In this document: positions 12,129 through 24,839 of the stretch, in pieces
Numbering within the stretch: position 1 is the first letter of the stretch
Layout: every line of letters starts with the position of its first letter
Source of the DNA: a virus
Taxonomy: Duplodnaviria > Caudoviricetes
Length of the DNA: 41,018 bases
Direction: 5' to 3' (one strand)
IMG/VR virus record: IMGVR_UViG_3300012943_000018
Location: 1 to 41,018 of that record
Position numbers and translations under genes: made by a program
Notes under the pieces: generated by a model
Seen by the model: the letters and a program-made list of their open reading frames with translations, nothing else
Told to the model about the DNA's origin: nothing
The model's database searches: none

Positions 12129-12267
12129 GGGTGAGGTGATAGTAGTGGCACTTCGGGCATTGGTAGACGCGCAGGTAGCCTCGCTCATGCGCGCGGATGT
12201 TCCGGATGCGCTTCGCCTCCTTCACGGACTTGTACTGGTTCTTTCCGCTGAAGGGGCATTTCGTCAT
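12106..12267 (-). CDS. Small zinc-finger protein (53 aa, not in the ORF track)
   Basis: MTKCPFSGK...RVYQCPKCHYYHLT; ATGA coupling to the upstream gene. Confidence 0.7.
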   Translation of the reverse strand: MTKCPFSGKNQYKSVKEAKRIRNIRAHERGYLRVYQCPKCHYYHLTHERPRRY

Positions 12268-12569
12268 AGCTGTCCGTTGCGGTGAGCGTGAAGGCTCGAC
12301 ATCTTCGTGAGGAACTCCACGAAGAGCGCGCGCAGCATGACGCGTTGCTCCCGATGGTTCACGTAAAGCTGGCCGAGATGGACCCTAGACTCCGGCTTGC
12401 ACCAGCACAGGATGTCATCGGTATGCTCCGGCTCGTAGTGGATCTTCAGGAACTCGCGGTTGAACTCGACGATGAGCGCGGACTCCTCCGCATCCGGCTG
12501 ATGCACGATGAGCGGTTTCTCTTCCGGAGCGGCCGCCTCCTCCTTCTTCTTAGGCGTGCGCTTCGGCAT
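12264..12569 (-). CDS. Hypothetical protein with a His/Cys motif
   Basis: EH....CWCKP...VNH; operon context. Confidence 0.65.
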   Translation of the reverse strand: MPKRTPKKKEEAAAPEEKPLIVHQPDAEESALIVEFNREFLKIHYEPEHTDDILCWCKPESRVHLGQLYVNHREQRVMLRALFVEFLTKMSSLHAHRNGQL

Positions 12570-13140
12570 AGGCTTTCATCTCCTTTACGCGCTTCTCGAT
12601 GCGGACCCCGAAATCGAGGATGTCGCGCATCGTGCGCTTGGTATAGAACGTCTGCGGCACGCACGGCTCGACGAGCTGGATGGTGAAGTCGCCGCGCTCT
12701 TCGGTCGGAAGCCAATGGATGCCGCACTCGAACTCCTCCGGCCGGATCTTCTTCGTGAGCCAGATGAGGAGGAGGTACATCGTGAGCTGCCCGGTCTCGT
12801 CGGCGCGCTTCTGGTCCCATGCCTTCTTCCCGGTCTTGAGATCGAAGAGCTTGAAAAGCTCGAACGATACATCGTCCGGCACGCCGACCAGCTCGAGCTT
12901 CCCGAGCTTCGCCTTCATCTTGTACTGAAGGAGCCCGTGTCGCGGCAGATCCGGAAGGAATGCCGGGTCGTCCTGGAACTGCTGGTCGATCACGGAACCG
13001 AACTCGAGCTCGCGCGTCGACTGGCGCTTGCCGAGAATGTACGTCTCGAACCATTGCTCCGGGTCCCACTCGAAGGACGAGATACAGGACCAGGAGACCG
13101 GCTTCTTGAGCCACTCCTCTATTTCCTTTTGATACTTCAT
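12550..13140 (-). CDS. PD-(D/E)XK exonuclease-like protein
   Basis: SWSCISSF, GVPDD, DLKTGK and QLTMY motifs. Confidence 0.75.
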   Translation of the reverse strand: MKYQKEIEEWLKKPVSWSCISSFEWDPEQWFETYILGKRQSTRELEFGSVIDQQFQDDPAFLPDLPRHGLLQYKMKAKLGKLELVGVPDDVSFELFKLFDLKTGKKAWDQKRADETGQLTMYLLLIWLTKKIRPEEFECGIHWLPTEERGDFTIQLVEPCVPQTFYTKRTMRDILDFGVRIEKRVKEMKAYAEAHA

Positions 13141-13614: not shown

Positions 13615-13704
13615 TATTGAATACCGATGGTCAATATAGTTTTCCCCATACGGAAATACTCCCCGGAAAGGGGAGTATACTTGAGGCAGAAAGGAGGGTC
13701 CGTC
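13615..13704 (+). promoter_or_regulatory. Promoter and strong RBS of the counter-oriented mini-cassette
   Basis: Inverted repeat ATACTCCCC-ggaaa-GGGGAGTAT (13656-13678) overlaps TATACT (13676-13681); SD AGAAAGGAGGG at 13688-13698. Confidence 0.6.
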
Positions 13705-13884
13705 ATGCGTCAATGCCTTCGTTGCAGTACGCCTACGGGAAACGAGCCCGAATGCACCTGCGGTTCCAGGACGGTCGAGATCCAGCCGACGCTCCCGTTG
13801 CGTCTCCCGATGCAACGGCGCGATCAGCGGGACCTCTTCGAGGACCGGGTGGAACGGTTCATCCAGACAGACGAAAGGAGGTGA
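13705..13884 (+). CDS. 59-aa zinc-ribbon-like protein, counter-oriented
   Basis: MRQCLRC...ECTCGS; strong SD, own promoter and terminator. Confidence 0.7.
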   Translation: MRQCLRCSTPTGNEPECTCGSRTVEIQPTLPLRLPMQRRDQRDLFEDRVERFIQTDERR

Positions 13885-13889
13885 TCCAG
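13873..13889 (+). promoter_or_regulatory. 17-nt perfect complement of the 16S rRNA 3' end, overlapping the stop codon
   Basis: GAAAGGAGGTGATCCAG is the reverse complement of CTGGATCACCTCCTTTC. Confidence 0.85.
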
Positions 13890-13894
13890 TATCT

Positions 13895-13925
13895 CCCGCG
13901 CCGGACTTCGGCGCGGGTCTTTTTT
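13895..13925 (+). terminator. Intrinsic terminator
   Basis: CCCGCGCCG-gactt-CGGCGCGGG followed by TCTTTTTT. Confidence 0.85.
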
Positions 13926-21627: not shown

Positions 21628-21875
21628 TCCTCTCACCCGATACCGTACGCATATTGCTGAAGTCGAAGCATGGACAGGAGTTCGTGAACGGCATCCGGGG
21701 CGAGCTCATCAAGCTCGACCTCATCTCGCAGATGCCGAAGCTCAAGGAACCGATGGAGATAGCGGTCGAGACGCTCGCACGCGCTCGCGCCGGGGAGGTG
21801 CTCCGCGCGATGCTCGAGCCTCTCGTGACTCCTGAAGAGGAGCGCCCTGGCGACGAGGATAAGGAGGTATACTAA
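21624..21875 (+). CDS. Hypothetical helical protein
   Basis: Coupled ORF immediately before the terminase genes. Confidence 0.7.
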   Translation: MILSPDTVRILLKSKHGQEFVNGIRGELIKLDLISQMPKLKEPMEIAVETLARARAGEVLRAMLEPLVTPEEERPGDEDKEVY

Positions 21876-21879
21876 TCGC

Positions 21880-22383
21880 ATGGCAAAGAAGAAGACTGTC
21901 AAGCCGAAGAGCAAGAAGCAGATTCTCCGCAAGAAGCCCGGTCGCCCTACCGTGTATACCCAGGAGCTCGCTGATGCTATCTGCCGCGAGCTCGCTAACG
22001 GCATCAGCCTTCGCTCTGTGCTCCGGGGTGAAGGAATGCCCGACGGTGCTACGTTCTTCAAGTGGATGCGAGAGATCGACGGGTTTTCCAAACAATACGA
22101 GGCCGCGAAAGAGGAATCTGCCGATGCTCTCATCGAAGATATGCTCGAAATCGCCGATGAAGCGCTCCCTGAATCGAAGTCCGGGGATGCAAAGCGCGCC
22201 GGCGCAAAGGTGGCCGCCCAGCGTCTCCGCGTCGATACGCGCAAGTGGGCGGCATCGAAGCTGAAGCCGAAGAAGTACGGCGACAAGCTCGATCTCACGT
22301 CCGACGGGAAGCAGCTCAAGGGCAATACGATAGTCTTCAAGGGATTCGATGAAAAGTCTGGAACTGAATCAGGTAGTGAATAA
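21880..22383 (+). CDS. terS: Terminase small subunit (Sf6 gp1-like)
   Basis: GRPTVYTQELADAICRELANGISLRSV...LRVDTRKWAASKLKPKKYGDK. Confidence 0.9.
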   Translation: MAKKKTVKPKSKKQILRKKPGRPTVYTQELADAICRELANGISLRSVLRGEGMPDGATFFKWMREIDGFSKQYEAAKEESADALIEDMLEIADEALPESKSGDAKRAGAKVAAQRLRVDTRKWAASKLKPKKYGDKLDLTSDGKQLKGNTIVFKGFDEKSGTESGSE

Positions 22384-23703: not shown

Positions 23704-24093
23704 ATGGACAAAACCCAAATCCGTGCGGAGCTCGATAAGCTCGGAGTCGTATACAACGCTCGCCTCGGCGAGGATAAGCTCATGGCTATCCTCGAGGAAG
23801 CACGGAAGAAGGGTAAAGGAGAGACTGGCGCAACCGCACCGACCGCACCAGCGGCCGGTGATACTGGCGCGTCCGGTCCGACTGGTCCTGACGAAGCTGA
23901 AGGTGCATCCGGTCCTACGGAACCGAGCGCCCCGGCTGCGGAGCCCGAGGCTCCTGCCGCGCCATCCGGCGTCGTGAAAATCATCGACCGCTTCGGTATG
24001 GTCTGCCGTACGTACTCTCTCGAGACGCATGGCGACGACTACGTTTCGCTCGCGCAGGAGTTCGCCAAGAAGAAGGGCCTCCGCATCGCCTAG
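23704..24093 (+). CDS. Protein with an N-terminal HeH/LEM-like motif and an Ala/Pro/Gly linker
   Basis: IRAELDKLGVVYNARLGEDKLMAIL; TATACT 6 nt before the ATG. Confidence 0.65.
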   Translation: MDKTQIRAELDKLGVVYNARLGEDKLMAILEEARKKGKGETGATAPTAPAAGDTGASGPTGPDEAEGASGPTEPSAPAAEPEAPAAPSGVVKIIDRFGMVCRTYSLETHGDDYVSLAQEFAKKKGLRIA

Positions 24094-24109
24094 CACCTTG
24101 ACCGTCAGC

Positions 24110-24200
24110 TAAACCGCAAAAATCTTCGACTTCTGGTCGAGGTGGTGATTTGCTTTGCGGTTTATCACCCCCTCTACCAGACGCCGAAAGCGTCTGTTTT
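24110..24200 (+). other. Structured leader / attenuator-like element before the scaffold-capsid genes
   Basis: TAAACCGCAAA...TTTGCGGTTTA stem, then CAGACGC-cgaaa-GCGTCTG-TTTT. Confidence 0.55.
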
Positions 24201-24233
24201 ACGTACCCCGGCCTATGGCCATAATCAAATCCT

Positions 24234-24839
24234 ATGGATGAGAAAGATCTAACCCCCACTCCGGAGGAAGCTACGCTTGAAAAGGAGGCTCTTGAAGAGG
24301 TCCAGGACGAAGAACTCCGTGAGAAGTTGGCCGCCGATTTAGGCATCGAAAGCGACAACCCACTTCTCGATACTCTCGTTGAACGAGAGAAGGAGTCTCG
24401 CTCTAAGCTCTCGAAGGCGATCGGTCAAAAGATCAAGTTCCGAGAAGCAGCTAAGGGCGTGAAGCCCCCTCAAGAGAAGCCGAAACCCGACGCGGCCCCA
24501 AAGACCGCCGAGGAGATAGCGGAGACTGTGCGTCAGCAGTTCGAGCAGCGCGACCTTGATGAACTCGACTTTCCGGATGAGCTCAAAAAGGAGATCGCGA
24601 CTGTCGCGAAGCTGAAGGGCATCTCCATCAGGCAAGCCGTCAAGGACCCCTACATCGACTACAAGGTGAAGGCGTACGAGACCGAGCAGAAGTCCGATGA
24701 TGCCACCATCACCCGCAAGGAGAAGGGAGGCGGAAAGGTCCAGTTCGATCGAAGCAAGCCGCCGAAGGTGGATATGTCGACCGAAGAGGGCCGCAAGACC
24801 TGGGACGAGTACACCAAGTTCCTCCGTCAGCCGCAGTAG
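24234..24839 (+). CDS. Capsid scaffolding protein (putative)
   Basis: Acidic N-terminus, coiled coil, immediately upstream of the capsid gene. Confidence 0.7.
   Translation: MDEKDLTPTPEEATLEKEALEEVQDEELREKLAADLGIESDNPLLDTLVEREKESRSKLSKAIGQKIKFREAAKGVKPPQEKPKPDAAPKTAEEIAETVRQQFEQRDLDELDFPDELKKEIATVAKLKGISIRQAVKDPYIDYKVKAYETEQKSDDATITRKEKGGGKVQFDRSKPPKVDMSTEEGRKTWDEYTKFLRQPQ

Follow-up and report, generated by a model that had tools for sequence, protein, structure and literature searches.

Extended SD sequences in described systems

The closest described counterpart of the element analysed here is found in the rre genes, whose extended SD, which binds the 30S subunit tightly, is known from one study that left its function open (Hahn et al., 2016, PMC5711450). 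In these small mRNAs of Alphaproteobacteria (e.g., rreB and rreR), a stretch of at least 16 nt complementary to the 16S rRNA 3' end lies in the 5' UTR and runs into the GTG or ATG start of a conserved small ORF. According to this study, rreB co-sediments with the 30S subunit, is weakly translated and depends for its turnover on its own start codon; a mutant in which GUG is changed to UAG remains in the ribosome pellet, with a half-life of 37 instead of 10 min (3.7-fold) (PMC5711450). The same text reports that 20-fold overproduction of rreB left growth unaltered, that simple ribosome recruitment was rejected by the authors, and that the ribosome association of rreB in E. coli is weak (PMC5711450). 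In Rfam, the family CC2171 (RF01867) begins with an rre site.

Other known elements resemble parts of this arrangement. Termination-reinitiation sites have an SD that overlaps a stop codon, and the phage SP82 stabiliser is a 5' stabiliser related to the STAB-SD of cryIIIA, which was reportedly described by Agaisse and Lereclus in 1996. According to PMC3997798, RNA in Bacilli gains stability from a strong SD that has no start codon; STAB-SD elements, in which this SD holds a ribosomal subunit, are found in the 5' leader, ahead of the ORF that they protect.

The window analysed here, i.e., the whole stretch of 41,018 nt, is a complete circular phage genome of ~40.9 kb (its first 100 nt are repeated 123 nt before the end) with terminase, primase, helicase and methylase genes. 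On its plus strand lies a start-less extended SD module (13871-13894) that is identical in 23 of 24 nt to the rreB site of Bradyrhizobium, as given by the rreB cloning primer, with GTA in place of GTG; rre-type loci on viral contigs match the window site at 22-23 of 24 nt. With rreB and rreR, the window shares the 17-nt 16S complement (17 of 17 nt in the window, 14-15 in its homologues), the TCT that follows it and a short stand-alone transcript, which for the window is predicted. Whereas the rre site is a 5' RBS for an ORF of 14-18 codons starting with GTG or ATG, the window site is located 3', lies on a stop codon and reads GTA; its complement neither runs into the GTG or ATG start of a conserved small ORF nor sits in the 5' UTR of a small mRNA. 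Moreover, the window ORF has 59 codons, its own SD and a terminator at once after the module. The window does not reach the gathering score of RF01867 (75 bits), other motif copies score 27-36 bits, and the homologous loci L481 and L482 give no match to this family at an E value of 0.05.

The window module resembles STAB-SD in being a strong SD without a start codon, and differs from it in being 3'-terminal, in reaching the base of helix 45 and in being tied to AUCU and a helix. It resembles termination-reinitiation sites in that GGAGGUGA contains the upstream stop codon, and differs from them in having neither a start codon nor a downstream gene on the same strand. Judged by its sequence, the window element is a variant of the rre extended SD that lacks a start codon and is 3'-terminal; at the same time, it represents the hairpin form of a motif that is widespread among phages. 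By analogy, it would work like rre and STAB-SD elements without being a member of either group, as two rre features and one STAB-SD feature are absent. The first-pass annotation of this DNA, made from the letters alone, knew of no described system of this form, a claim that did not survive: the 17-mer is also present in rreB and rreR, and its start-less form occurs widely among phages.

The cassette of the window and its homologues

The first-pass annotation had described a plus-strand unit consisting of a -10 box, an SD, a 59-aa Cys4 ORF, a motif over the TGA and a terminator 5 nt further on, and all these parts were found in place. The putative promoter is a -10-like hexamer, TATACT (13676-13681), with no canonical -35 upstream, from which transcription is predicted to start ~7 nt further 3', at the SD itself. 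This strong SD (13688-13698, -12.4 kcal/mol), the predicted 5' end of the mRNA, precedes a small ORF (13705-13884) for a 59-aa protein with a Cys4 zinc-ribbon pattern (CxxC-x9-CxC), a Pro/Leu-rich tail and a C-terminal ERR-TGA. The 17-mer complementary to the 16S tail (13873-13889) overlaps the stop codon (13882-13884), and GTA (13889-13891) occupies the usual place of a start codon and is followed by TCT. Directly 3' of this TCT and 5 nt after the 17-mer begins helix P1, an intrinsic terminator (13895-13925) made up of a hairpin (13895-13917) and a T run; its 10-bp stem starts at 13895 and is G-closed with TCT next, and it forms a nested hairpin without the second helix (P2) of an H-type pseudoknot. 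The module thus has the form by which the wider motif is defined, i.e., GGUGAUC[C/U], 1-5 nt, AUCU and a helix at offset 0. No ATG, GTG or TTG separates the motif from the T run, and GTA stands where rreB has its start; as had been proposed, the module is a non-canonical element and not an ordinary RBS, a reading that these observations support. At the gathering threshold the window has no Rfam match, and no tRNA was found in it. A perfect 9-bp inverted repeat (13656-13678), which is not kept in the homologues, overlaps the -10 box, and a divergent promoter-like site on the minus strand (13634-13606) lies beside it.

The 17-mer is unique in the window even when 3 mismatches are allowed (0.08 expected in shuffles), and its site is the strongest anti-SD complement of the genome (-21.4 kcal/mol, against -18.2 for the runner-up). 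The earlier claim of a perfect 17-nt complement stands in that the 17-mer is the exact antisense, in 17 of 17 positions, of two of three 16S gene ends from one Saccharibacteria MAG (L610, L612), and has to be narrowed in that the conserved unit is 14-15 nt long, with the final AG, and sometimes the last C, differing among homologues.

A metagenome scan gave 10 loci: the record of the window itself (L480), two that end before the ORF does (L488 and L489) and 7 complete homologous cassettes; four of the six motif carriers among the latter have neighbouring accessions and are maybe not independent samples. Six of the seven carry GAAAGGAGGTGATC, 2-6 variable nt, ATCT, a hairpin and a T run, with L485 as the exception; a member of an EWR-ending subfamily, examined as DNA, also has no motif. 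The 16-mer at the ORF end is invariant in the 7 of 7 aligned cassettes (window included) across two reading frames, as L486 reads it in another frame than the remaining ones. The final two Arg codons are AGG AGG in all five close homologues, compared with five other invariant Arg columns that vary synonymously. Among more distant members, known as protein sequences, ends such as KGGDPYL, RKEVV or KGGP correspond to the other two frames of the motif, and one depth-2 contig has the ERR end with different codons and a bulged motif just 3' of the stop. The codon at the place of the rreB start is GTA in the window and ATA, CTA, ATA, TTA, ATA and TGA in six homologues (TGA in L481). The hairpin sequences are fully diverged, with pairing and T run retained, and the duplexes predicted with the 16S tail range from -27 to -35 kcal/mol in all 7 cassettes. 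Loss of the motif, or of conservation past the stop, in homologues had been named as a finding that would speak against the element; the motif is instead kept in most complete cassettes and conserved past the stop, and these comparisons support selection of the motif at the nucleotide level beyond the stop codon. Three of the runs (X2-X4) are labelled RNA and are probably DNA, and contig ends of X2 carry what we take to be adapter-like sequence. On a phage-like MAG contig (L506, 1500-1560, minus strand), the motif follows an unrelated gene of 250 aa, and the terminator hairpin is nearly identical to that of the window.

The surrounding layout is conserved as well. The SD GAAAGGAG is retained in 8 of 9 homologues, and a -10 hexamer (TATACT, TATAAT or TAGAAT) lies 7-8 nt upstream of it in 8 of 9 homologous loci, a spacing with which a transcript of ~238 nt would begin right at the SD. 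The cassette is located at differing genome positions in different phages. In 7 of 7 cassettes, the apparent gene that comes next has a convergent orientation, which indicates that no downstream gene is served, and these convergent genes are not alike. No cassette homologues were found in IMG/VR by tblastn.

The ORF is under coding constraint, as third positions diverge by 0.45 and second positions by 0.14, and 25 of 34 invariant protein columns are synonymously variable. A profile search gave 16 matches, of which 12 were read and 11 entered an alignment of 21 rows, in which the four Cys are invariant. The 59-aa protein belongs to no Pfam, PHROG or PDB sequence family, its top Atlas matches are without names, and its predicted structure (pTM 0.36) has no fold match at an E value of 0.001, the nearest being the zinc ribbons of Nop10 and Spt4. 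Its tail contains stretches that resemble β-clamp motifs (QPTLPL and QRDLF); PAQLSLPLYL of Hda is such a clamp-binding motif (PMC11139829). The strict pattern given in that paper, Q-aliphatic-x-[L/M]-(x)-[F/L], occurs in 5 of 21 family members (0.3 in shuffles; PMC11139829), and a relaxed pattern, set after the sequences had been inspected, in 18 of 21 (2.4 in shuffles); the window protein has the relaxed pattern and not the strict one. The family thus appears enriched in β-clamp-like motifs, and clamp binding is a lead only.

That most genes of this genome are SD-less, as had been stated, was borne out: of 41 genes picked by hand, three, including the cassette ORF, lie at or below -8.4 kcal/mol with an anti-SD probe, and the median is -2.7 kcal/mol (-3.7 in random windows). 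The other two strongly SD-led genes are those of the terminase small subunit and ORF 12264-12569 (stretches 21860-21880 and 12570-12590, respectively). A non-coding leader before a putative scaffold gene (24093-24234) has hairpins and an anti-SD-like stretch on the plus strand, and its minus strand holds the second-strongest anti-SD site of the scan. Concerning the host, the cassette protein was found in none of 401 Patescibacteria genomes and the motif pattern in one; the capsid protein has distant matches in three (25-30% identity), and one named capsid homologue (53%) lies on a 2.4-kb contig of a Patescibacteria MAG. These matches are too weak for naming Patescibacteria as the host. The idea that an invariant ACG extends the pairing to a host-specific tail also failed, both because the CPR tails are mostly CCTTTCT (among 150 of 285 matches listed) and because rreB carries an identical ACG; the 16S 3' tail is nearly invariant in the CPR tails examined. 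In one Patescibacteria genome (L614, G025:C1, ~304052-304072), a mini-cassette of similar plan, unrelated to that of the window, consists of a -10-like box, an SD and a short ORF ending in QRR-stop with the same motif, followed by a weak hairpin and a T run. The nearest annotated phage (L616, MW202577.1; terminase 54%) has at an arm junction (1540-1800) a small unit on the plus strand that is SD-led and has a -10 and a terminator of its own, but does not contain the motif.

A widespread phage motif at stop codons

By its sequence, the site belongs to a motif found widely among phages, AAAGG-N-GGUGAUCC-N-AUCU-helix, which is estimated to occur in the order of a thousand viral stretches: projected from the matches listed, IMG/VR would hold ~920 stretches with AGGAGGTGATCC-N1-4-ATCTC and ~1600 with GATCC-N-ATCTCCC-N-GGGTTA. 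Because phage copies are related, these and the following counts overstate independent events. Among the matches listed for the GATCC pattern (98 distinct copies), the three preceding bases are G in 93, G in 92 and T in 95 copies; variation is found at the A of the GGAGG core (C 41, A 40, T 16, G 1), and AAAGG lies 1-4 nt further upstream of this core. For one subfamily, the matches listed with a pattern that contains no SD letters comprise 49 distinct upstream sequences, and in 48 of these GGTGATCC (at most 1 mismatch) was found 3-5 nt before ATCT. Within the 16S complement of this subfamily, 5 of the only 11 substitutions available are pairing-compatible (wobble) and 6 are not.

The distance to the helix is fixed. 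Of the 94 viral copies among the matches listed, 66 have a helix that starts immediately 3' of TCT (6.3 in shuffles), compared with 3-14 copies at each of the offsets 1-5; with a loose genome-wide pattern as a control, which yields mostly chance matches inside ORFs, P1 was present in 12 of 119. These 94 copies comprise 53 pseudoknots, 10 with P1 only, 3 nested hairpins like that of the window and 28 unclassed. Of the listed copies, 57 have a G-T-N-A anchor (26 further rows are without it), and of these 50 are Watson-Crick at the second pair of P1 (30 when shuffled, at most 40) and 49 at the third (27 when shuffled, at most 36), and P2 is formed in 42 (12.7 when shuffled, at most 22). The motif thus usually appears to end in a covarying pseudoknot, in place of which the window has a terminator hairpin; in both forms the first base of the helix is C and the last is G, followed by U. 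In many of the pseudoknot copies, P2 is succeeded by a T run. Compared with the majority form, the window differs in its long nested hairpin and terminator, in its self-contained cassette and in its SD-poor phage.

The stop of a frame of at least 45 codons falls within -12 to +8 in 99 of 164 copies among the matches listed (controls: 6-26 at shifted places and 19 on the opposite strand); the window stop has offset +6, as in 10 of the 164 pooled copies. TCT stands immediately before P1 in 72 of 76 listed copies, and in these 72 the preceding codon is NUA in 57, AUG in one and otherwise, e.g., ACA, GCA or AGG (15 are not NUA), with a purine before TCT in all 72. This codon sits 1-2 nt past GATCC in 61 of the 72, and in start-bearing sites ATG or GTG lies 0-2 nt past GATCC in 21 of 27, again among the matches listed. 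No conserved frame or peptide follows AUC or NUA in the motif copies examined.

The motif is present in cultured phages: in Streptococcus phage SM1 the complete motif lies on the stop codon of gp37, and LF4 has a wobble-compatible variant. In phiLC3 (L615, 1470-1560) and IPP45 (L633, 260-370), a small pseudoknot stands before the terminase gene and the 16S complement is lost, which indicates that the parts of the motif are separable and makes these phages natural deletion controls. Rfam 15 has no family for the motif (searched with the window and with 20, 8 and 16 loci), with sub-threshold CC2171 matches on the motif, and GP20-a and GP20-b RNAs adjoin it in some loci. A likeness to hammerhead, pistol, twister or HDV-like ribozymes, ToxI or SECIS was considered, checked in Rfam and dropped. 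No paper on a start-less extended-SD phage motif was found in the mostly open-access literature searched.

Related sites occur in other contexts. In eleven loci (L002, L003, L016, L023, L027, L030, L035, L039, L046, L051 and L056), the 16-mer (~601-616) lies in the coding frame of a family of phage proteins (…NEGTDLR..RKEVIQ.S…RRGRPRKV-stop), often with TCT after it and with ~25 codons left to the stop; it may be a pause site or a version of the module located within a gene. In L031, L084 and L112, the extended SD (after 601-616) precedes tiny Lys/Gly-rich ORFs of 11-19 codons, two of them with a terminal Cys. The IMG/VR contigs L011, L012, L096, L048 and L118 have rre-type sites with GTG-TCT and ORFs of 14-33 codons.

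Possible roles of the module

By analogy with rreB, the module probably holds a 30S subunit without initiating; binding as such is very likely, because the identical 17-mer binds 30S in rreB (PMC5711450). This reading joins conservation, stop-codon position, avoidance of start codons and a helix fixed directly after AUCU, as observed here, to the ability of the sequence to bind 30S without a start codon and the greater stability of such RNA, both taken from rreB. In the proposed mechanism, the ~238-nt transcript would be made from its own promoter and translated from the 5' SD, and a terminating or free 30S subunit, which would slide or land on the module, would be caught by a duplex of 14-17 bp with the 16S tail, a geometry that would equal termination-reinitiation minus the start. 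The P-site position would then offer GUA, no start codon, and the helix from +7 would hinder entry into the mRNA channel, parking the subunit beside the terminator. There it would protect the whole message, or the final 55 nt, against decay, and the anti-SD of this subunit would be taken out of use. Several observations count against such docking: across the wider family the GGAGG core is not conserved at its A, L485 and the EWR-ending member are without the motif, phiLC3 and IPP45 have the pseudoknot without the 16S complement, rreB is weakly ribosome-associated in E. coli (PMC5711450), and known SD stabilisers protect RNA downstream of them, of which the window module has ~35 nt. Cis stabilisation of the RNA 3' end is the main purpose that we tentatively favour, at somewhat short of even chances; we rank it, on the same analogies, above trans masking, trans masking above attenuation, and attenuation above near-cognate initiation and a structural role.

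Trans masking, in which a stable short RNA or 3' fragment occupies many 30S subunits as an anti-SD decoy, disfavours SD-led host mRNAs, spares the SD-less phage genes and feeds back on the SD-led ORF of the cassette itself, is a minority possibility that we consider unlikely. The stand-alone promoter and terminator, the lack of a downstream gene, the SD-poor genome and the differing positions of the cassette in different phages are in its favour, as would be the few ribosomes that CPR cells are said to contain (PMC12641178), if these were the host. However, the host searches do not establish a CPR host, two other genes of this genome are strongly SD-led and, among the motif copies listed, the next gene of most of these phages has its own SD. 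Global masking is less likely because rreB overexpression was harmless (20-fold without a growth effect; PMC5711450) and phages that carry the motif commonly have SD-led genes; for the latter reason masking in favour of SD-less genes, as proposed in the first-pass annotation, cannot be its general role. A 30S subunit on the module might instead cover the 5' arm of the terminator, so that ribosome availability sets termination against read-through, the latter producing antisense RNA against the convergent gene or, in the pseudoknot class, reaching late genes. The helix start fixed inside the 30S footprint (offset 0 in 66 of 94 listed copies) and the T run after P2 in many pseudoknot copies fit this attenuation, which is nevertheless quite improbable, given that the convergent genes vary between cassettes, that no alternative antiterminator fold appeared in the predicted folds and that 30S would have to bind before the hairpin forms.

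Two further readings seem slightly more doubtful still. Very weak, rre-like initiation at the near-cognate NUA (e.g., at low IF3 proofreading) could trigger ribosome-dependent cleavage or decay, in keeping with a register identical to GUG-UCU of rreB, with the prevalence of NUA (57 of 72 listed copies) and with the start-codon-dependent turnover of rreB (PMC5711450); yet no frame or peptide is conserved downstream, UGA stands at this place in L481, 15 of the 72 listed copies have other codons, and the window frame would run into the T run of the terminator. On the other hand, the GGUGAUC..AUCU core may serve as an RNA structure or as a protein-binding site, in the form of a weak hairpin that stacks on P1, its 16S match being incidental or the relic of an old RBS. 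A purine before TCT in all 72 listed copies is compatible with GAU/RUC pairing, the GGAGG core is broken in many copies, and in the small sample of 11 substitutions 6 are not pairing-compatible and 5 are; this has to be set against the match of the core and the upstream AAAGG to two parts of one 16S tail, the strong duplexes predicted in every complete cassette, the absence of the internal hairpin from the predicted folds and the binding of rreB to 30S (PMC5711450). An assembly chimera, carry-over of a 16S primer or chance has a negligible probability. The 17-mer overlaps what we take to be a common 16S reverse primer, and 2 of 95 distinct viral matches among those listed are true 16S fragments. 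However, a 40.9-kb Logan contig (run X1, which may be the source sample and hence gives a second assembly, not a second sample) spans the region without differences, six diverged homologues keep the motif amid differing flanks and the sequence 3' of the 17-mer is not 16S, which together refute the suspicion of an artefact.

The boldest combination of these ideas, to which we give little credence, is a two-in-one cassette for host takeover, whose transcript of 240 nt would yield both a zinc-ribbon protein that plugs the β-clamp and a stable 3' RNA that would occupy the anti-SD in a tiny CPR-like host with few ribosomes, shifting translation to SD-less phage genes; ribosome-docking RNAs would then form a class found throughout phages, with this module as their hairpin form.

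In all, the sequence comparisons indicate that the motif is real, conserved and, within the scope of the literature searched, not described. The window cassette is the cleanest case among its carriers: with its own promoter, its own terminator and no downstream gene, the usual readings as a 5' stabiliser or as a site of re-initiation fall away. A start-less extended SD at the stop codons of many phages provides a large natural alignment and simple constructs, and makes accessible the question of whether a non-initiating 30S subunit on an mRNA leads to protection, to gating of termination or to loss of anti-SD capacity. If masking were true, it would give an SD-less phage an RNA-only means to bias the ribosomes of its host.
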